A DNA stretch of 64,000 nt from Candidatus Bathyarchaeota archaeon (GTDB lineage Archaea; Thermoproteota; Bathyarchaeia; TCS64): contig JAGTQU010000003.1 in the NCBI GenBank assembly GCA_018396695.1, forward strand, positions 12,899 through 76,898. Reading direction: 5' to 3'. The translations under genes and the position numbers were made by a program. This document shows positions 90 through 24,401 of this stretch, in pieces; position 1 is the first letter of the stretch, and every line of letters begins with the position of its first letter. The notes below the pieces were generated by a model that had not been told where the DNA came from, did no database searches, and saw only the letters and a list, made by a program, of their open reading frames with translations.

Positions 90-1313
90 ATGCCAACCGA
101 GTTAATTTTGAAGATCTTTCCCCTGATCAATATCGGACTCTACTTGCTGTTTGCTTATCTTATTTTAAGAATAAAATTTGAATTCAGGTACGCTATTTTA
201 GGATCAGTATTTTTTTTATGTAGTTTCTTTTCTCGCCAACAATATTTTGGTCCTCCTGGCATATCTTATATTTTTTATCTTACAGGATTTCTTCTAATTT
301 CGTGGATATTTTTCACTGATAAAAGAAATAAAGGAATCTTTTCAATTTTATTTTTTTTAATATCAATTTTACTCATATTTACACATGTTTTGACATCATT
401 TTTTTTGATCATATCGCTGTTATCTATATATTTTGTTCACATAATTATAAAAAAATTATCTAATTTTGTTTTGAGTATAACAAGTTTAGGATTAATAATA
501 TGCTTTTTAATATACAATATGTATGCAGTGCCGAACTTCGGTCTTATTAGACTATTCATAAAAAACATTTATGATGGATTAAAATTTTTATCTTTTTTCC
601 GTGAAAGTAATAGAATAATTGGAACGTTTTCTAATGAAATAAGCTACTATAGTTCATGGGCTATTGTTTTCATTAATCTAATCGGATTTGCAATAACATT
701 AATCTTAGGAATTCGAAAAAAAACTAAAATCGAATTGTATAATGCCTATTTAGCAATTAACATAATTATGCTAGGAATATTTGGGGTAATAGGTAGATAT
801 GGAGCACATGAAGCCTATCAAAGAGCATTCATGTTTGGATTAGTACCTTTAGCATATTTCTCAATAAATGTGATGCGAAACAAAATATATATGTTGATTA
901 TATTAATAATTTCTTTAATGTTTCTGAACCTTCCTGCTCAATACGGATCCGATACATTCAGATTAGCTACTGAAAAACAACTTTATGGAAGCAGATTTTT
1001 CGCTTATAATACGCCGAATGAAATAAGTGTTCATGGACAATTCTCACTTTATGTTAGATATTATACTCCAGTCAAACATATTAAATTTGAAGCAATCCCA
1101 GGAACATCTTTGCCATTTACTTATATCCCTAATTCTACTGCAATAATTAATGCGATTACTACAACAGATTATACCATCTTCTCTGAGTTAACATATAACT
1201 TCATTTATTATTATTATGGAAGAAATTTATATGATGAAGTAAATCTAAATACATTAAATAGGGTTTACGATAATTCAGGTTATGAAATTTTTAAACCTCA
1301 TGCTAAAAACTGA
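90..1313 (+). CDS. Polytopic membrane protein (about 9-10 TM helices plus a C-terminal soluble domain of about 130 aa). A glycan polymerase/Wzy-like role is possible but unproven. The reading frame is open back to the window start, so the true start may lie upstream.
   Basis: The translation is extremely hydrophobic with repeated 20-25 aa helices. It has an AT-rich codon composition. The C-terminal 130 residues are hydrophilic and Tyr/Asn-rich. There is no in-frame stop upstream of position 90. Confidence 0.45.
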   Translation: MPTELILKIFPLINIGLYLLFAYLILRIKFEFRYAILGSVFFLCSFFSRQQYFGPPGISYIFYLTGFLLISWIFFTDKRNKGIFSILFFLISILLIFTHVLTSFFLIISLLSIYFVHIIIKKLSNFVLSITSLGLIICFLIYNMYAVPNFGLIRLFIKNIYDGLKFLSFFRESNRIIGTFSNEISYYSSWAIVFINLIGFAITLILGIRKKTKIELYNAYLAINIIMLGIFGVIGRYGAHEAYQRAFMFGLVPLAYFSINVMRNKIYMLIILIISLMFLNLPAQYGSDTFRLATEKQLYGSRFFAYNTPNEISVHGQFSLYVRYYTPVKHIKFEAIPGTSLPFTYIPNSTAIINAITTTDYTIFSELTYNFIYYYYGRNLYDEVNLNTLNRVYDNSGYEIFKPHAKN

Positions 1314-1611: not shown

Positions 1612-2721
1612 TTACTTTATCTCGTAGAAAGCTGGAAGTGGAACATAACCATTGAATAAATTATAAGGTTCTGCTCCACTGTTCTCAGGCTGCATCACCC
1701 AAACATAAACTCGGTCTATTCCCTTAGATTTTGCATAGTCGATAAAAGCTCTTATATAATTTGCTTGGTCTTGCTGATCACTATTATGCCTCCCAAATTC
1801 AGTGATCCATAACTCCTTCCCTCTGCTATGCGCTGCTTGAATCATGGCATTCATCTTAGCCTCTGTTACCCCCCAAACGGATTTATCAGGGTTACGCGGA
1901 TCCCAATAGACGTTTCTGCAAAGGAAGTCAGTAGCGTCATCTATCGCTGAGCTGTAATGCCCAGTACTAGGAGAGTATCCTCCCATAAATCGTACACTAA
2001 CAGGCATTTGGGTCCTCTCCTTAGCCGCACTGATCACGCTTAAGATAAAATTGTTCTCGGAGGTTGAAGCGGTCTGTGCCTGCGGTTCATTAAGAACCAT
2101 CCACGCCTTGACTGTATAACCATCAAATGCTGATATTGCGTTTCTAACATAATTAAGGTACTTCTCACGGTTAACGCTATTGCCTGAAGCTGAATCATCA
2201 AAATATCTGTCCCAAGTTGTGTACCATGTGTGAAGATCTATGTTCACAGCTATCCCTAATGACTGGCACAACGTGATTATTTCCTTCGCCTTTGCTACAC
2301 CACTCGAACTAGGTTGCTCGTTGCTCCATTCATACATAGCGTTTAGGCGAAGCGTTATCTCGGTAAAACCCTGTGCTTTGATTATATTCACGAAAGTTGA
2401 GACTTCGCTGGAAGTCATCGAGTAGAAGTTGATCAGCTCTGCGCTAGCTACAAACCCTGACGGGGATGGCGGTGGCTGCGGTGAAGGTGAGGGGGATGGA
2501 CTGGCAGGTGGAGAAGAACCTTCTTCTCCCTGAGATGCATAAGTGATCACCCCTACTGTTGTTATTGATTTTGTTAATGAAACGGCACCTAACCCAATGT
2601 TTACGTTTAAAGAAACATATATTAGAACAACAATGGAAAATAAATACATATTTTTTATTATACTTGATTTACCAAATATCCTACGAGGTATTAAATTTTT
2701 AATTTTACATGATCTTTTCAT
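1612..2721 (-). CDS. Glycoside hydrolase family 5 (cellulase/mannanase-like), N-terminally membrane-anchored or secreted, with a Pro/Ser-rich linker.
   Basis: N-terminal hydrophobic anchor. A PSPSPSPQPPPSP linker follows. The GH5 acid/base motif is present as LNEP and the nucleophile motif as WITEFG. Confidence 0.75.
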   Translation of the reverse strand: MKRSCKIKNLIPRRIFGKSSIIKNMYLFSIVVLIYVSLNVNIGLGAVSLTKSITTVGVITYASQGEEGSSPPASPSPSPSPQPPPSPSGFVASAELINFYSMTSSEVSTFVNIIKAQGFTEITLRLNAMYEWSNEQPSSSGVAKAKEIITLCQSLGIAVNIDLHTWYTTWDRYFDDSASGNSVNREKYLNYVRNAISAFDGYTVKAWMVLNEPQAQTASTSENNFILSVISAAKERTQMPVSVRFMGGYSPSTGHYSSAIDDATDFLCRNVYWDPRNPDKSVWGVTEAKMNAMIQAAHSRGKELWITEFGRHNSDQQDQANYIRAFIDYAKSKGIDRVYVWVMQPENSGAEPYNLFNGYVPLPAFYEIK

Positions 2722-2839: not shown

Positions 2840-3064
2840 ATGGTGATACTCTTGAATCTTCCTCTAGGATTTTCAGATATAAGCAAACTAATAGCTTTAT
2901 TATCAATTATATTGATAATAACATCTGTTATAATCCACCAAAATTATAGATATTCTAATTTGACTCTTGACAGACATTATCTCGAAAAGGTTGCATTATT
3001 CTTAGGCTTGATCACTCTCATACCAATAGCTATGATTGTATTCGAAATAATTATCTTTAGATAA
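2840..3064 (+). CDS. Small two-TM membrane protein, hypothetical.
   Basis: 74-aa ORF with two hydrophobic helices. AT-rich composition. Confidence 0.3.
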   Translation: MVILLNLPLGFSDISKLIALLSIILIITSVIIHQNYRYSNLTLDRHYLEKVALFLGLITLIPIAMIVFEIIIFR

Positions 3065-3545: not shown

Positions 3546-5585
3546 ATGGCAGGGTTTAACATGATTCCGATAAGGCGAGAGAGAACCAACTTGAGTTTAA
3601 TCCTAAAAATCTTGGTATTAATATCATCTATAACTATAGTTTATTGGCAAGATTTCACAATTTTGTTAAATGAGGCGCTCAACAGCGATTTAGCTACCCA
3701 CATCCTTGCTATACCCTTTCTAGTCGCCTATATTTGTTTCAGAATTCGTCACAGATTTAGAGCTTTAGCCTCCGATATTCTAGTAAACACTAATTCACCA
3801 GCTAGGAGAGCACTTACAAATATAATAGGTATACTTCTATGTGCCTTCGCATACTTCTTGAGATGGACAGGTTCATACAGTTTTATACCATTAGAATACC
3901 ATATAGCTTCATTACCCATTTTCATCTCAGGGCTAATCCTCCTAATCTTTAACTTTCATGTTCTGAGAGCCCTATTCTTTCCAGTAGTTTTTCTACTTTT
4001 CATGATTCCTCCACCAGTTGAACTCGCTCAACAAGTCGGAGGTTACCTCTCATACTATAGCTCTCATGGAGCCTATAATCTCCTAAAGGCAGTTAATCTC
4101 CCTGTGAGGCTTTCTGATCTAGATGGAAACCCTATAATCTTCGTTAAGATCCCTTCAGGAGAGGAGTACCCATTCGTAATAGATCTGGCATGCTCAGGAA
4201 TCTATTCCCTCATAGGATTCCTTATATTCGCACTTTTCTTGGCATACCTCGTCAGAGGGCCATTAATCAAAAAAACTGCTATCCTACTCTTGGGTCTTCC
4301 TTTAATATACCTACTTAACATTCTGAGAATAACGATCCTTGTAATAATCGGCTTCGCTTCGGGACCTTACGCAGCTCTAAATCTCTTTCACATTTTTGGA
4401 GGCTGGTTCCTAATTCTCATTGGAACCCTCATCATATTGCTCACTTCAGAAAAATTATTAAAAGTAAGCTTGTTTGGCTCAGAACCTATTCACTGCAACG
4501 ATTGTGAAAAATATTCAATTAACCAGTATTGTTCATCATGCGGTAAGATGCATCGATTCAAATATAATTTTTCGAGGCTTAGCCTATTAAAAATAATAAG
4601 CATTTTGGCTATTTCAATAATTCTCATCTTTATACAGGTACCAGTTTATAATCTGACAAATGGATCAGCTGAAATATTCATTAAAAAATATTCTGGAGAA
4701 GTATTCACAACTAATATCTTTCCTAAAATTAACGGCTATGAACTCAAATTTGTATATAGAGATACGTCCTTTGAAGAGATAAGTGGACAGGATGCAGCAC
4801 TAATGTACATGTACGCCCCTAGAGACCCTTCTAAACCTTTAGTATGGGTTGGTCTAGAGATTGGCCCAGCTAAGGCAAACCTCCACACCTGGGAAGTATG
4901 CTTAATTACTTATCCACAATCTCTTGGAAGAGAACCTAGCGTTATACAACTCGATTCGAGGGATATCAAACTTCTAGATAATCCTCCCCTTACAGCCCGT
5001 TACTTTGCTTTTATAGATAAGAAAAATAATTTTACAGAGACAATACTCTACTGGTATACAAAATCAGTTTTCAGATCCGAGGGAGAATATGTAGAGAAAT
5101 GGTCGAAGATCAGCGTGATCAAACTGGACGACAATCCTTCAGATTACCTAGAAGCTGAAGAAGAGATCTATCCATTCGCGAAGAGTATAGCTGAATACTG
5201 GCAGCCTGTGGTTACTTGGTCGAAATTTGCACTTGTTATAGCGTATCATGGAGTAACCCTTTTGCTTTTAACAGGGTCATTTATAATCGCCTCTACAGGG
5301 GTATATCTATATGGATTATTTTCTGAAAAAAGACATGCGAAAATAATGTTTAATAAAATAAATAATATAGAAGATAAAACTATTCTGGAGATAATTAAAA
5401 ATACTGAAAATGACGTAATAACTGAAAAGTATGTATCATTAAAATTTGTTGAACGTTTAGGAAAACAGATAGATGAAGATAATATATTAGCAAAACTTTT
5501 AGAAGCAGAGAAAAACGGTCTGATTGAAAGGAAAATCATCAGCTTAAATGACAATCCATACATAACTTGGAAGGCTAAATTCTAG
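3546..5585 (+). CDS. Exosortase/archaeosortase-family transpeptidase-like membrane protein. It is fused to a CxxC...CxxC zinc ribbon, an EpsI-like extracytoplasmic domain and a C-terminal winged-helix-like cytoplasmic tail.
   Basis: N-terminal roughly 300 aa are polytopic. They carry the motif DLACSGIYSL (putative catalytic Cys) followed by LNILRITIL (Asn-x-x-Arg) and a later His in HIFGGW, which is the pattern of the EpsH/archaeosortase family. Then comes CNDCEKY...CSSCGKM. A TM helix and a roughly 190-aa domain containing LHTWEVCL follow, which is EpsI-like. A final TM helix precedes a roughly 95-aa charged tail. Confidence 0.6.
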   Translation: MAGFNMIPIRRERTNLSLILKILVLISSITIVYWQDFTILLNEALNSDLATHILAIPFLVAYICFRIRHRFRALASDILVNTNSPARRALTNIIGILLCAFAYFLRWTGSYSFIPLEYHIASLPIFISGLILLIFNFHVLRALFFPVVFLLFMIPPPVELAQQVGGYLSYYSSHGAYNLLKAVNLPVRLSDLDGNPIIFVKIPSGEEYPFVIDLACSGIYSLIGFLIFALFLAYLVRGPLIKKTAILLLGLPLIYLLNILRITILVIIGFASGPYAALNLFHIFGGWFLILIGTLIILLTSEKLLKVSLFGSEPIHCNDCEKYSINQYCSSCGKMHRFKYNFSRLSLLKIISILAISIILIFIQVPVYNLTNGSAEIFIKKYSGEVFTTNIFPKINGYELKFVYRDTSFEEISGQDAALMYMYAPRDPSKPLVWVGLEIGPAKANLHTWEVCLITYPQSLGREPSVIQLDSRDIKLLDNPPLTARYFAFIDKKNNFTETILYWYTKSVFRSEGEYVEKWSKISVIKLDDNPSDYLEAEEEIYPFAKSIAEYWQPVVTWSKFALVIAYHGVTLLLLTGSFIIASTGVYLYGLFSEKRHAKIMFNKINNIEDKTILEIIKNTENDVITEKYVSLKFVERLGKQIDEDNILAKLLEAEKNGLIERKIISLNDNPYITWKAKF

Positions 5586-5636
5586 AAGATTTTTAAATGA
5601 ATTTCTTAATCTGATTTCTTATTTTTTTAAAAAAAG

Positions 5637-6950
5637 TTGTGCACGGAAAGACCTGAGATGAGCTTTAAACTACTTAGATATCATTATCAGCTTCAACAAT
5701 CGAAGAAATTGAATAAGGAAATACTTAAAGAGATTCAACTTCGAAGATTAAAGGAAATAATATCACATGCTTATCTCAACGTTCCATTCTATCATGAAAA
5801 GTTTGAGAAAGCAAAAATAAAGCCAGAGGATATAAAAACACTGGATGACCTCGAAAAAATCCCATTGACAACGAAAGCCGAAATACAATCCACTCCCTTG
5901 AATTATCTAGTTTCCAGATACGTAAATTTGAATAATTGCGACAGATCGTTAACCAGTGGCACTACGGGAATGCCTCTGACAATAATAATTGACAGAGATT
6001 ATATGGATTTTCAAGTTGCATTATTCGCCAGAACGTATTTTGAAGATGGAGTAAAATTATGGCATAAAATGATGAGAATAGTTGATCCTTTATATTTGCC
6101 TAAGAAAGGGGATTGGTATCAAAAAATAGGATTAATGAAAACGAAGTACGTCTCTCTATTCGAACCCATCGAGAAACAATTTTCTATAGCAAAAAAATAT
6201 AAACCCGACATATTGAGAGGTTTCAGCTCTCAAATCGCTTTGTTGGCATACCATGCTCGTGAGAATGGTGAAGTCTTGAAGCCTAAAATAATTTTCACCT
6301 CAGCAGAATACCTTGACAAAGCTTCCAGAAACCTGATAGAATCAACATTCCTAAGCCAACTATTCGACCTTTACATAAGCACAGAGTTTGGGCTAATGGC
6401 TTGGGAGTGTAAGGCCCATTCAGGGTATCATACTAACATTGAAAGCGTTATGATCGAATTCGTAAAAGATGGTGAACCTGTCACAGATGGTGAGAGTGGG
6501 GAAATAATCTGCACAAACCTCGTTAACAGAGCAATGCCTCTAATCAGATACGACTTAGGAGACGTAGGCATCCCTACGGAGGAAGAATGCACATGTGGGA
6601 GCACTCTGCCTCTCATCAGACTCGTCGAGGGTCGAACAGGAGATTTCCTCGTCACACCGGATAATCGAATAATATCGCCGACGATATTTTTCCCTTATCC
6701 CTTTAACGATGTTGAAGGGATAAAACAATTCAGAATAATACAGGAGAAAAAGGATAAGCTAATCATACAGCTAGTTGCAGATGAAGATTTTAAAAGAAAT
6801 GAACTAGCCCTAGAAAAAGCAAGAAAAGAGATCTGGAAAGTATTCGGTGAAAACATGAATGTTGAATTCCAATTTCTAGACAAAATTAAAAGGGATAATG
6901 AAAGAAAATATAGAAAGATAGTGTCGAAAATACCTATTCATCTCACTTAA
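5637..6950 (+). CDS. Adenylate-forming enzyme of the phenylacetate-CoA ligase / CapK / coenzyme F390 synthetase family.
   Basis: The AMP-binding signature SGTTGMPLTI is present. Length (about 430 aa) and overall motif order match the PaaK family. The gene lies immediately downstream of the exosortase-like gene on the same strand. Confidence 0.75.
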   Translation: MCTERPEMSFKLLRYHYQLQQSKKLNKEILKEIQLRRLKEIISHAYLNVPFYHEKFEKAKIKPEDIKTLDDLEKIPLTTKAEIQSTPLNYLVSRYVNLNNCDRSLTSGTTGMPLTIIIDRDYMDFQVALFARTYFEDGVKLWHKMMRIVDPLYLPKKGDWYQKIGLMKTKYVSLFEPIEKQFSIAKKYKPDILRGFSSQIALLAYHARENGEVLKPKIIFTSAEYLDKASRNLIESTFLSQLFDLYISTEFGLMAWECKAHSGYHTNIESVMIEFVKDGEPVTDGESGEIICTNLVNRAMPLIRYDLGDVGIPTEEECTCGSTLPLIRLVEGRTGDFLVTPDNRIISPTIFFPYPFNDVEGIKQFRIIQEKKDKLIIQLVADEDFKRNELALEKARKEIWKVFGENMNVEFQFLDKIKRDNERKYRKIVSKIPIHLT

Positions 6951-7050
6951 TGATCTTCTTCCCTTTTCTACTTATCCATAAAATAATTACGTAAAACTCT
7001 TTTCTAAAGATTTAAATAACCATATTAAACATTAACAAATAGGTGAAAGA

Positions 7051-7278
7051 TTGAATAAGAATAATAGGAGAATCCTGGCGGCTTCACTGGTGATTATAGG
7101 CTTAACGCTGATATTCATAATAAATGGAGTATTATTTGCGCCTCAACCAGAGCCTACAGTTACTCCAACAGCTGAAAACACAATGGCTCCAGGATTCCAT
7201 GTCCCTGAGATCCCTGGAACTCTAGTTGCCTTAGTATTGGGAGTTATGGGGCTGTTAGTGTTTTATTTAAAGAAGTAG
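7051..7278 (+). CDS. 75-aa protein consisting of an N-terminal signal anchor, a roughly 25-aa Pro/Thr-rich segment, and a PEP-CTERM-like C-terminal sorting signal (VPEIPGT, then a hydrophobic helix, then KK). It is the putative cognate exosortase substrate.
   Basis: The N-terminus is MNKNNRR followed by a 23-aa hydrophobic stretch. The C-terminus is VPEIPGTLVALVLGVMGLLVFYLKK, which matches the tripartite Pro-Glu-Pro / TM / basic architecture of PEP-CTERM and PGF-CTERM signals. The gene is directly downstream of the sortase-ligase pair. Confidence 0.5.
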   Translation: MNKNNRRILAASLVIIGLTLIFIINGVLFAPQPEPTVTPTAENTMAPGFHVPEIPGTLVALVLGVMGLLVFYLKK

Positions 7279-7379: not shown

Positions 7380-8201
7380 ATGGAAATGGTAGAGAATTCC
7401 AGCATTGAAAAGATGGAGAAGCAGATAGAGTCCCTTGAATCGGAGATTAGGAGGCTTAAGAGGAAGCCGACAGGCGCCATAGGGACTCTGATTCTGGCTT
7501 TAGGGCTGATGCTCCTAGCCTTAGCCATCATCGTTGAGCATAACATATCAGCCTTCATCGGAATAGCCTTAACCTTCTGGGGAGCCCTCCTCCTATACGT
7601 CAGGCCTACAAGCTTCGTTAGAAAAGAGATCCTCAACGTTTTATCTACTCAATCCCTTTCCGAGATGGCGGAGATTATTGATGAACTAGGTTACCGAGGG
7701 GCCCCATTCCACGTTTCGCCTCCAAGCCTTCTCGGGATGAGGAGAACGAGGCTCATAATCCCGAAAAACCCTCTCTCGAATCTAGGAGAAGATGCTTCCA
7801 TAGATGAGTTAACGATTACGCCAACACTGATTTCGGTTGATCCCCCCGGGCAGGAGCTATCAAGCCTGATTGAGGAGGAGCTGAGAACAAACTTCTCGGC
7901 GAGCAGCTTAGAGTATGTGGAAAACAATCTTGAGAAGGCTCTGGTGGAAGGGTTAGAACTAGTCGAGTCGTTCGCTATGGAGCAGGAGGGGGAGAGAGTA
8001 TCCGCTAAGTTCAAAGGTAGTGTATTCTTCGACGTTGCGGAAAGGTTAAGCGGTTTGAAGATTAATCCTGCATTTTGCGACCCGCTTACAAGCGCCTTCG
8101 CATGCATCCTCGCAAGGGTGACCCAGAAGAGGGTCACTATAGAAAAGATGGAGCTGAAGCCCGAGGAGAAGACCGTCACAAGCACATACAGGCTTATTTA
8201 A
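7380..8201 (+). CDS. Hypothetical protein with an N-terminal coiled coil, two TM helices and a C-terminal soluble domain.
   Basis: ORF translation. This is the first GC-normal gene after the AT-rich island. Confidence 0.4.
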   Translation: MEMVENSSIEKMEKQIESLESEIRRLKRKPTGAIGTLILALGLMLLALAIIVEHNISAFIGIALTFWGALLLYVRPTSFVRKEILNVLSTQSLSEMAEIIDELGYRGAPFHVSPPSLLGMRRTRLIIPKNPLSNLGEDASIDELTITPTLISVDPPGQELSSLIEEELRTNFSASSLEYVENNLEKALVEGLELVESFAMEQEGERVSAKFKGSVFFDVAERLSGLKINPAFCDPLTSAFACILARVTQKRVTIEKMELKPEEKTVTSTYRLI

Positions 8202-8220: not shown

Positions 8221-8820
8221 TTGACTGGAAAAAAGGAGCTAGAGGAGAAGCTCATAGAAATCATCGAAGCCTTCTCAACTTCTACGGTGAAGGAGCTCCT
8301 CGAAATAGCTCATCTGCAGCTTTCCATCCCAAAGAAGGAGCTGTTGGACATTATCCTCCGCCTACAAGACGAGGGGAGGATAAGCCTTAAGCTGCCGGAG
8401 AAAAGAGCCAAATACAGTTTAAGGGAATATTTCTTTAAAGGAGGGGTCTACTGGTTCTGGTGCATTATCCTTCTCTCAACCACAGCAATGTTGTCGATCT
8501 TCCTGATACCTGAAGACGCTTACCCCATAATCCTTGCAAGATACGTCCTCGGCTCACTCTTCGTCCTCTTCCTACCAGGATTCAGCCTCGTAAAAGCCCT
8601 CTTCCCTAAAAAGGAATTAGATAATGTCGAGAGGATGGTGTTGAGTTTAGGGTTGAGCCTAGCGATTGTGCCTATCTTCGGGCTACTCCTCAACTATACT
8701 CCATGGGGGATAAGGCTTACCCCTATAACCCTAGTGCTCCTTTCTTTCACCATCTTTCTCTCATTTGTGGCTATGATTAGAGAGTATAATGAAAAGTTTC
8801 CTAAACCTGAGGAAGAATAA
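8221..8820 (+). CDS. DUF1616-like archaeal membrane protein (N-terminal wHTH-like segment plus 4 TM helices). TTG start.
   Basis: N-terminal helical domain followed by four hydrophobic helices. The architecture is typical of the archaeal DUF1616 family. Confidence 0.4.
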   Translation: MTGKKELEEKLIEIIEAFSTSTVKELLEIAHLQLSIPKKELLDIILRLQDEGRISLKLPEKRAKYSLREYFFKGGVYWFWCIILLSTTAMLSIFLIPEDAYPIILARYVLGSLFVLFLPGFSLVKALFPKKELDNVERMVLSLGLSLAIVPIFGLLLNYTPWGIRLTPITLVLLSFTIFLSFVAMIREYNEKFPKPEEE

Positions 8821-21564: not shown

Positions 21565-21662
21565 TGGAGCCCTGGGCGGGATTCGGACCCGCGATCTTCT
21601 GCTATCTGGCTCCGTTTTGGAGATACCAAGCAGACGCTTTAGCCAGGCTAAGCCACCAGGGC
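21565..21662 (-). tRNA. tRNA-Thr(GGU) with a 20-nt intron at the canonical 37/38 position. CCA is encoded.
   Basis: Reverse complement reads GCCCTGG-TG-GCTT-AGCCTGGCTA-AAGC-G-TCTGC-TTGGTA[TCTCCAAAACGGAGCCAGAT]A-GCAGA-AGATC-GCGGG-TCCGAAT-CCCGC-CCAGGGC-T-CCA. All stems pair perfectly. Confidence 0.7.
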
Positions 21663-24171: not shown

Positions 24172-24254
24172 GCGGGGGTTCCCGAGTGGCCAAAGGGGTC
24201 AGGTTCAGGACCTGATGGATTAGTCCTCCGTGGGTTCGAACCCCACCCCCCGCA
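24172..24254 (+). tRNA. tRNA-Leu(CAG), type II with a long variable arm. CCA is not encoded.
   Basis: GCGGGGG-TT-CCC-GAGTGGCCAAA-GGG-GTCAGG-TTCAGGA-CCTGA-TGGATTAGTCCTCCG-TGGG-TTCGAAC-CCCA-CCCCCGC-A. Confidence 0.8.
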
Positions 24255-24401
24255 CTTAATCGCAATTGAAGGTTTAAAACTGTCAACTCAGAATAAGTCG
24301 GTTAGGATGGATATTATGAGATTGTAGAATCTATACACTGAAGTCTTTTAGACAAGATTTTTCTAAGTGGTTACAATCTCTGGATTATGTGATGTGGGCA
24401 C

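Follow-up and report, generated by a model that had tools for sequence, protein, structure and literature searches.

A stretch of 64,000 nucleotides (nt) from the genome of a 'Candidatus Bathyarchaeota archaeon' (contig JAGTQU010000003.1, positions 12,899 to 76,898; the whole stretch is called the window below) carries three adjacent genes, which encode a 679-amino-acid (aa) exosortase-family fusion protein, a 437-aa adenylate-forming ligase, and a 75-aa protein with a predicted C-terminal sorting signal. We consider it likely that these genes belong to an exosortase-type sorting module which is located beside surface-polysaccharide genes and cuts FVVPE-tagged proteins, the ligase serving the polysaccharide pathway and not the cleaved peptide. 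A first-pass annotation made from the letters alone had described the three genes as a dedicated sorting system of an archaeal genome. The open reading frames (ORFs) indeed lie side by side in one direction at 3546-5585, 5637-6950, and 7051-7278, and the archaeal origin was borne out, with Bathyarchaeia as host: NCBI proteins 100% identical to the 679-aa and the 437-aa protein come from a 'Candidatus Bathyarchaeota archaeon' metagenome-assembled genome (MAG), labeled generically as 'exosortase/archaeosortase family protein' and 'phenylacetate--CoA ligase family protein', and the remainder of the window is ordinary archaeal chromosome with genes for class I lysyl-tRNA synthetase, NucS, and topoisomerase, among others. 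Exosortase/archaeosortase systems decide on the attachment of secreted proteins to the cell surface or matrix, and among the archaeal enzymes solely haloarchaeal ArtA has, to our knowledge, been studied experimentally. The features of the module are listed here with window coordinates and strand (TM, transmembrane).

2840-3064, +: small two-TM membrane protein, called p74 here, upstream of the exosortase; phmmer matches in 47 of ~78 loci
3546-5585, +: exosortase-family fusion protein, 679 aa, ~10 TM segments; PF09721, TIGR04178, >120 full-length homologues
3591-4445, +: exosortase catalytic membrane domain, aa 16-300, from the alignment of 24 members
4191-4193, 4326-4328, and 4389-4391, +: codons of the predicted catalytic residues Cys216, Arg261, and His282
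4494-4544, +: predicted cytoplasmic Cys-rich, zinc-ribbon-like linker (CNDC...CSSCG), from Cys conservation and weak Pfam zinc-ribbon matches
4635-5231, +: predicted extracytoplasmic alpha/beta domain, aa 364-562, between TM9 and TM10; remotely EpsI (DUF3485)-like, with a Mog1/PsbP/DcrB-like fold
5343-5582, +: predicted cytoplasmic winged-helix tail, aa 600-679
5637-6950, +: putative cytoplasmic PaaK/CapK-type adenylate-forming ligase (CapK_C family), 437 aa; PDB 4r1l match, PF27533
7051-7278, +: 75-aa candidate mini-substrate with TTG start; sorting signal at 7195-7275
7380-8201, +: DUF7982 protein, 273 aa, with N-terminal helix, TM hairpin, and cytoplasmic V4R/YslB/BcsD-like domain
8221-8820, +: DUF1616 membrane protein with soluble N-terminal domain and 4 TM segments; PF07760, E=1.9e-29

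Exosortase family membership and fused domains

The 679-aa protein was matched by PF09721 with E=1.8e-37 (129.5 bits against a cut-off of 25.7) and by the superfamily signature TIGR04178 with 62.2 bits (cut-off 23). In an alignment of 24 members, Cys216 of the motif ACSG was at least 90% conserved, and Asn258, Arg261, and His282 were invariant. Judged from these matches and the alignment, the protein belongs to the exosortase family and has an intact Cys216/Arg261/His282 triad, as the first-pass annotation had read from its Cys, Arg, and His motifs. None of the named exosortase subfamilies XrtA, B, C, D, E, J, O, S, T, V, W, and X reaches its curated cut-off with this protein, the top named models being XrtD (97 bits vs. 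400), XrtW (91 vs. 425), and XrtA (79 vs. 208), and the archaeosortase models ArtA (25.8 bits vs. 75) and ArtC (19.5 vs. 100) stay below theirs, too. Because XrtD, XrtW, and XrtA outscore ArtA and ArtC, the catalytic domain is nearer to bacterial exosortases than to archaeosortases, and no model of NCBIfam release 20 claims the family. The NCBI version of the protein (P0001, 640 aa) begins 39 residues after the first ATG of the ORF (window 3546-3665), a start that would drop the conserved TM1 including the invariant K21; close relatives begin with MAEINMIP... or MIPITRER, and the deposited version probably starts too late.

Full-length homologues with the same architecture of ten TM segments form more than 120 protein clusters with 39-88% identity, and in species-representative genomes 80 loci carry it at ~32-46% identity. 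The hosts are nearly all Bathyarchaeia, joined by a few MAGs labeled Hodarchaeota, and some genomes harbor two copies. In MAGs labeled as Asgard (Hodarchaeales; proteins P0025, P0039, P0101, P0271, and P0301) and at locus L003, exosortase, DUF7982, and DUF1616 proteins show 44-49% identity to the window proteins, which could reflect either true transfer between lineages or a binning error. Longer fusions were also seen among the family members, namely P0070 (960 aa), P0134 (957 aa), P0142 (1209 aa), and L016:10001-12873; P0070 adds the methyltransferase-type domains PF05050 and PF02475, and the EpsI-like domain is found at ~630-840 in P0134 and at ~890-1085 in P0142.

The architecture of an exosortase fused to extra parts, already proposed in the first-pass annotation, was borne out by alignment, structural model, and hydropathy. 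Hydropathy supports the polytopic core, and the topology derived from hydropathy and the positive-inside rule is self-consistent, with the N-terminus predicted inside, Cys216 at the outer membrane face, the Cys-rich linker in a K/R-rich cytoplasmic loop, aa 364-562 outside, and the winged helix in the cytoplasm. For residues 308-679, an AlphaFold model was built on an alignment of 23 sequences (mean pLDDT 80), comprising a TM helix, an alpha/beta domain (pLDDT ~90), a long helix with TM10, and a tail of three helices and a beta-hairpin. Of the suggested zinc ribbon, a Cys-rich linker after TM8 could be retained, in which C317 is at least 90% conserved and C329, C332, and G333 are invariant in the 24-member alignment; thus, the second knuckle (CxxCG) is fully kept. 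Several members have a degenerate first knuckle, the Pfam zinc-ribbon matches (DZR, Zn_ribbon) are weak and confined to 8 of 23 members, and the model has low confidence there (pLDDT 42-75).

The claimed EpsI-like character of the domain at aa 364-562 received mixed support. The domain sits where EpsI sits in bacterial exosortase-EpsI fusions, i.e. after an extra TM segment, and PF11984 (EpsI) weakly matched 7 of the 23 members (best E 7e-4), with collinear matches in the three members inspected (profile ~3-158 of 203, always starting just after TM9). All scores are below threshold, however, with 14-18 bits in these three members (18.3 in the best relative) against a gathering cut-off of 26.1; PF11984 gave no match on the window protein even at E<=10, and the EpsI models of NCBIfam, including TIGR02914, matched none of the domain sequences of the 23 members. 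A profile of the ectodomain alone was tried as a bridge to bacterial EpsI and rejected for this purpose, as it retrieved essentially just the window's own family: ~250 proteins in 1.84 billion representatives, nearly all of them alike in length and in the location of the domain. By these comparisons, the domain is probably a remote EpsI relative at best.

The proposed winged-helix-like tail was recovered in the predicted structure: aa 600-679 have an H-H-H-beta-beta topology and match known winged-helix domains in structure, so that the cytoplasmic tail is, according to the model, a winged-helix fold. It showed no significant sequence match to DNA-binding families. The possibility that the tail and the N-terminal domain of the DUF1616 protein are paralogous modules was discarded after BLASTP revealed no similarity. 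A fold like that of DNA-binding regulators, predicted with confidence and on the cytoplasmic side, together with the conserved Cys-rich linker, the occurrence of DUF1616 beside separate HTH_45 genes at the heads of polysaccharide clusters, and the exchange of the catalytic Cys for Ser in one family member, would fit a fusion protein that acts chiefly as a membrane-tethered sensor or regulator of genes for polysaccharides or surface proteins, proteolysis being of secondary importance or lost. We regard this as highly improbable, as the triad is kept in at least 90% of the members, tagged substrates cluster beside the gene, and the tail lacks a significant match to DNA-binding families, winged helices also being known as protein-protein modules.

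Family sorting signal and the 75-aa mini-substrate

At 87 loci with the exosortase, ORF ends were searched for the dipeptide P-[ED] directly followed by a hydrophobic stretch of 16-26 residues and a K/R cluster. This tag pattern was matched by 82 ORFs, compared with 3-14 ORFs for each of six control dipeptides, and 76 of the 82 are on the same strand as the exosortase, at a median distance of 1.2 kb. At least one tagged ORF is present in 53 of the 87 loci (one in 32, two in 15, three in 4, and four in 2). The tags follow the consensus F-V-[VI]-P-E-x-P-[LT]-G, giving F-V-[VI]-P-[ED] plus TM helix plus K/R as family signal. Most tagged ORFs have a signal-peptide-like N-terminus. Among their diverse cargo are a multicopper oxidase, a CBM96/DNRLRE protein, an InlB-repeat protein, and numerous domains that belong to no family. 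Relations to known tags were found in single cases: the tail LVVPEPAT... of a substrate at L024:15035 passes the bacterial PEP-CTERM model TIGR02595 (21.7 bits vs. a cut-off of 16), another tail has a weak PEFG-CTERM match (12.5 bits vs. 25), and some family tails read PEF or PDF. In a distant sub-clade (L052, L057, L062, L063, L065, L066, L068), one substrate of 130-230 aa is encoded 50-90 nt upstream of the exosortase and ends with x-V-I-P-[DE]-[FL]-P-x-[IV]-G-T-A-G-A...GLGLF...KKR. This looks like a dedicated enzyme-substrate pair, and the co-variation of enzyme and tag in the sub-clade is as expected from cognate pairs.

The 75-aa protein consists of a basic N-terminus, a signal anchor, a linker of 20 aa rich in Pro, Thr, and Glu, and the C-terminal sequence FHVPEIPGT followed by a TM segment and KK; by hydropathy, it has two hydrophobic segments. 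Its tail FHVPE-IPGTLVALVLGVMGLLVFYL-KK is tripartite, with a P-E core abutting the TM segment and a basic end, fits the family signal, and is nearly equal to the tail FVIPE-IPGTISAIV... of a substrate at locus L023. The earlier reading as a small protein with signal anchor and PEP-CTERM-like tail is thus supported by a signal of cognate type that recurs on neighboring secreted proteins of the family. In NCBIfam and Pfam, including TIGR02595 and PF07589, no match to the 75-aa protein was obtained at E<=0.1. It was also said to be the single target of the enzyme: within the window this is correct, as no other ORF combines a P[ED] motif with a TM segment and a basic tail, but elsewhere the family has one to four nearby substrates per locus with diverse cargo.

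The 75-aa ORF is conserved in frame in the relative with 79% identity (locus L084), where the ortholog has the same length, a TTG start, and an upstream GGTGA box. Between the window and L084, dN/dS is 0.18 overall, with a saturated dS of ~1.4, and no indels occur across the 75 codons; by parts, the ratio is lowest for the tag (0.11) and the N-terminal anchor (0.12) and highest for the linker (0.41). On this codon comparison, we take the ORF to be a real gene under purifying selection, and the small ORF of the first-pass annotation is conserved. The same minimal layout, with a linker of 20-35 aa rich in Pro, Thr, and Glu, is found in proteins of 83-93 aa at L013, L018, L041, and L074, and mini-substrates are therefore a recurring class. 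Small ORFs beside the exosortase in L001 and L002 were also considered as homologues, but turned out to be unrelated proteins of zinc-ribbon type.

In another close relative (L085, 81% identity), which shares the upstream GH5 glycosidase and p74 genes and whose DUF7982 is nearly identical, the mini-ORF has become a pseudogene: start codon and GGTGA box are gone, and there are several frame-breaking indels and an in-frame stop. Also, at L086 (51% identity) the slot between exosortase and DUF7982 holds a 233-aa FVIPE-tagged protein. Both observations, and the lack of any matching family model, would be in line with the 75-aa ORF being a decaying remnant of a larger substrate whose cargo was deleted and whose function is gone. 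The low dN/dS without indels, the strongest constraint on anchor and tag, the preserved start and GGTGA box, and the independent mini-proteins of the same layout in four other loci all argue against decay in the window, and we consider a remnant very unlikely.

The ligase, the conserved neighbors and the proposed mechanism

The 437-aa protein was matched to PDB 4r1l over aa 19-403 (E=2e-29), the alignment including the SGTTG motif, and CapK_C (PF27533) is recorded for P0350, the NCBI protein 100% identical to it. By these sequence matches it is a member of the PaaK/CapK group of adenylate-forming enzymes, in agreement with its first description as PaaK/CapK-type enzyme. Equivalog assignments failed, with 98.7 bits vs. 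646 for TIGR02155 (PaaK) and 57.8 vs. 459 for TIGR03335 (F390 synthetase); the cut-offs of the FlxY and DVU_1553 families were likewise not reached, and TIGR03098, the exosortase A-associated acyl-CoA ligase, gave no match at E<=0.1 in the NCBIfam search. By hydropathy, no TM segment or signal peptide was detected. The ORF starts with TTG at 5637, and the corresponding region of the L084 ortholog, MSLKSLKYFYGL..., aligns from M8 (ATG 5658); on the basis of this alignment, ATG 5658 is probably the true start. Gene callers differ on the length, with 413 aa for the window protein and 381 aa for the L084 ortholog.

The ligase belongs to a large family, of which at least 1,371 clusters were retrieved at E<=1e-20. 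Four nearest homologues located on long contigs were sampled: three lie in clusters of glycosyltransferase, DegT, epimerase, and pyruvyl-transferase genes headed by DUF1616 and with no exosortase nearby, and the fourth has an exosortase 3.7 kb away. For the neighbors of the exosortase, the window proteins were compared with six-frame ORFs of ~78 informative loci. A homologue of DUF7982 was found in 50, of p74 in 47, of DUF1616 in 34, and of the ligase in 7 of these loci, and the 75-aa protein gave one weak match. The first-pass annotation had treated exosortase, ligase, and mini-protein as a conserved unit, which these counts do not bear out; the conserved partners are DUF7982, p74, and DUF1616, all of which it had omitted.

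DUF7982, the most conserved partner, is typically encoded 2-100 nt downstream of the exosortase. It resembles the small-ligand-binding domains BcsD, YslB, and V4R at the fold level, with a sequence identity of 8-13% that amounts to no sequence similarity, and differs from them by its tether, a TM hairpin, and by an invariant Cys. The p74 homologues have mostly 68-70 aa, share the core FPL.F.DIS...ITSE, and usually follow straight after DUF7982; in L085 and L086, p74 is found upstream of the exosortase as well. In L001, a YdjM gene lies between exosortase and DUF7982. A random sample of 150 further neighbors within 7 kb was enriched in polysaccharide functions (Wzx-type flippases, nucleotide-sugar epimerases/dehydratases, DegT, GT2), and bacterial EpsH was described in the same polysaccharide-gene setting (Haft 2006, PMC1569441). 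PIN-domain proteins (7/150) and YdjM-family membrane proteins (5/150) were among the commonest in this sample. Exosortase-free polysaccharide clusters headed by DUF1616, which follows an unannotated protein of ~160-170 aa, were seen at L087:2799-5542, L089:3629-5090, and L090:2437-3548, with an HTH_45 regulator upstream in L087 and L089. Since it heads exosortase-free clusters, DUF1616 looks like a marker of polysaccharide loci and not like an exosortase-specific partner.

As an alternative, the three genes could form a dedicated system whose ligase acylates or otherwise alters the mini-peptide after processing, or else provides an acceptor specific to it. L084 has preserved the gene order exosortase-ligase-mini-ORF, and in L085 the ligase is absent in the same genome in which the mini-ORF is pseudogenized; moreover, a ligase gene follows the exosortase after 54 nt in the distantly related L002 and adjoins it in L003. 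On the other hand, the ligase is found in just 7 of the ~78 loci, and the other loci with an adjacent ligase (L002, L003, L088) have no tagged ORF nearby; conversely, the mini-substrate loci L013, L018, L041, and L074 are without ligase, and three of the four nearest ligase homologues reside in exosortase-free polysaccharide clusters. TIGR03098 is unmatched, and the joint loss in L085 is a single event, which could be a coincidence or one deletion-driven decay. The location of the reactants is unfavorable, too. The first-pass annotation had suggested that the ligase possibly acylates the processed peptide: such direct acylation is unlikely because the ligase, devoid of TM segment and signal sequence, would be cytoplasmic and the cleavage product would be at the outer membrane face. 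On balance, a dedicated three-gene system appears unlikely; the ligase is most likely a polysaccharide-pathway gene and not a dedicated partner, with synthesis of a sugar or lipid-linked precursor as the more plausible role.

Unlikely, too, is an intermediate possibility. In Bathyarchaeia and some Hodarchaeota-labeled MAGs, the enzyme would link the sorting of surface proteins to the cytoplasm via zinc ribbon, winged helix, and DUF7982; in the clade of the window, the ligase would make a cytoplasmic acceptor or decoration that the exosortase joins to the Pro/Thr-rich mini-peptide of ~20 aa, yielding a small membrane-anchored lipo- or glyco-peptide in place of a conventionally sorted protein. 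If it were true, the co-retention in the window and L084 and the co-loss in L085 would be the footprint of a coupling between ligase and mini-peptide.

For the preferred sorting module, we propose the following mechanism. By analogy to sortases, to ArtA/PGF-CTERM, and to the transpeptidation model discussed by Haft, Sec would insert the substrates, and their C-terminal helix would hold them in place. The 679-aa enzyme would act as an intramembrane Cys/Arg/His endopeptidase, and probably transpeptidase, which recognizes secreted or membrane-inserted proteins whose end combines F-V-[VI]-P-[ED] with an immediately following TM helix and a K/R cluster. Through Cys216, the enzyme may cut at this motif or close to it, on the outer side of the membrane, whereby the anchor helix would be removed, and the new C-terminus would probably be moved to a lipid or glycan acceptor, keeping the protein on the archaeal surface or matrix, as in the analogous ArtA/PGF-CTERM system. 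In the window, the local substrate would be the 75-aa mini-protein, which has little beyond signal anchor, Pro/Thr-rich linker, and tag. The ligase would be a cytoplasmic adenylating enzyme of the flanking polysaccharide or glycoconjugate pathway that at most builds the acceptor or a glycan decoration. The conserved ectodomain, the cytoplasmic parts, and DUF7982, p74, and DUF1616 suggest a complex coupling sorting with acceptor supply or regulation. By analogy we infer how cleavage and transfer proceed chemically, what kind of acceptor is used, and what the accessory domains and partners do.

Several observations weigh against this proposal. Of 45 well-flanked loci, 14 are without a tagged ORF in the vicinity; therefore, substrates must often lie elsewhere. 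In the full-length family member P0084, GAASSG replaces DxACSG and thus the catalytic Cys is changed to Ser, which may reflect a sequencing error, an inactive paralogue, or a variant with Ser as nucleophile. No exosortase structure was matched by sequence search, and ORF calling at the comparison loci was naive, each ORF being taken at its greatest length from its first start codon. A pure protease model does not account for the zinc-ribbon linker and the winged-helix tail, and a ligase that is merely an unrelated neighbor does not predict that ligase and mini-ORF occur together in the window and L084 and are lost together in L085.

Further features of the window and of related loci are given for completeness. 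The guanine-plus-cytosine (GC) content takes a sharp step inside the conserved module, from 27% for the membrane protein gene at 90-1313, 28% for p74, 36% for the exosortase, 37% for the ligase, and 41% for the mini-ORF to 49% for DUF7982, 45% for DUF1616, and 49-52% for the next genes (window mean 40%), which could be due to a mosaic origin or to membrane-protein composition. Horizontal transfer of the whole module, considered for its low GC, was not adopted as an explanation, as the break lies inside the conserved module between mini-ORF and DUF7982. The gene at 90-1313 (+) encodes a 407-aa polytopic membrane protein without family match, which might be a polysaccharide polymerase or glycosyltransferase. 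Upstream of p74, a secreted GH5-like glycosidase is encoded at 1612-2721 (-); its linker is rich in Pro and Ser (SPPASPSPSPSPQPPPSPSG), and it lacks a sorting tag. L085 has the same arrangement of GH5-like glycosidase and p74. At L086:2509-4360, an IS200/IS605-type pair (Y1 transposase and OrfB/TnpB fragment) is located 2-4 kb upstream of the module. Rfam revealed no RNA element in the module and two tRNAs elsewhere in the window. One of them, at 24172-24255, was confirmed by ARAGORN as tRNA-Leu(CAG); the other, with 95 nt at 21568-21662 (-), is absent from the ARAGORN output, and its length suggests an intron-containing archaeal tRNA.

Significance and comparison with known systems

A search of the available literature yielded no paper that pairs exosortase or PEP-CTERM with Bathyarchaeia. 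The sole paper naming both exosortase and Bathyarchaeota describes no such system, and two papers naming exosortase and Asgard, among them PMC6098224, appear not to describe one in their available parts. The assertion that the system had not been described holds insofar as neither a curated subfamily model nor a paper on the family was found. The general principle is already known: subfamily-specific exosortases or archaeosortases have their own tag, are sometimes fused to EpsI, are often located amid polysaccharide genes, and are sometimes beside a dedicated target. The present evidence reveals no new chemistry, and ligase-driven peptide modification is a minority possibility. What the analysis defines is an exosortase family of bacterial type that is coherent and widespread in Bathyarchaeia, which are among the most abundant uncultured sediment archaea, together with its tag F-V-[VI]-P-E plus TM plus K/R, predicted cargo (oxidase, carbohydrate-binding proteins, mini-peptides), and three conserved partners. 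For annotators, this is a new signal/enzyme pair and a route to predicting the surface proteome of these archaea, and for archaea, which have no outer membrane, it offers a connection of protein sorting to polysaccharide synthesis that can be tested.

With the bacterial PEP-CTERM/exosortase systems (EpsH/XrtA and the XrtD and XrtW fusions), the window protein shares the superfamily, the Cys/Arg/His triad, the tripartite tag with P-E core, the polysaccharide-gene setting (PMC1569441), and an ectodomain fused after an extra TM segment at the EpsI position. It differs by its archaeal host without outer membrane, by the tag F-V-[VI]-P-E instead of VPEP, and by features not noted for bacterial exosortases, i.e. 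the zinc-ribbon-like linker, the tenth TM segment, the winged-helix tail, and the partners DUF7982, p74, and DUF1616. Moreover, it scores far below the cut-offs of the named bacterial subfamilies, and the relation to EpsI is sub-threshold. In the original survey of these systems, no PEP-CTERM was found in Archaea (Haft 2006, PMC1569441).

The archaeosortases (ArtA/PGF-CTERM of Haloferax, ArtC/PEF-CTERM, and PEFG-CTERM) have in common with the window enzyme the archaeal host, a homologous catalytic domain, and the tripartite C-terminal signal, whereas they lack EpsI-like, zinc-ribbon, and winged-helix additions and occur mainly in Euryarchaeota and not in Bathyarchaeia and Hodarchaeota. According to the review PMC6098224 and the Haft 2023 preprint, helix removal by ArtA has been demonstrated along with attachment of a lipid, and ArtA would be the best mechanistic analogy for a cell without outer membrane.

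The one-target systems XrtE/VPEID-CTERM and JDVT-CTERM/MrtJ also place an enzyme beside a single small cognate target, for JDVT-CTERM as one-per-genome targets adjacent to the enzyme (Haft 2023 preprint), and the window has one tagged ORF in its 64 kb. The similarity to XrtE is low (29 bits vs. a cut-off of 150), however, and with one to four nearby substrates and varied cargo the loci of the family are not strictly one-target. Finally, the ligase shares full-length similarity, SGTTG, CapK_C, and, for its homologues, the glycosyltransferase, DegT, epimerase, and pyruvyl-transferase neighbors with the PaaK/CapK (COG1541, CapK_C) ligases of polysaccharide loci; unlike in those loci, it is wedged between an exosortase and a mini-substrate.

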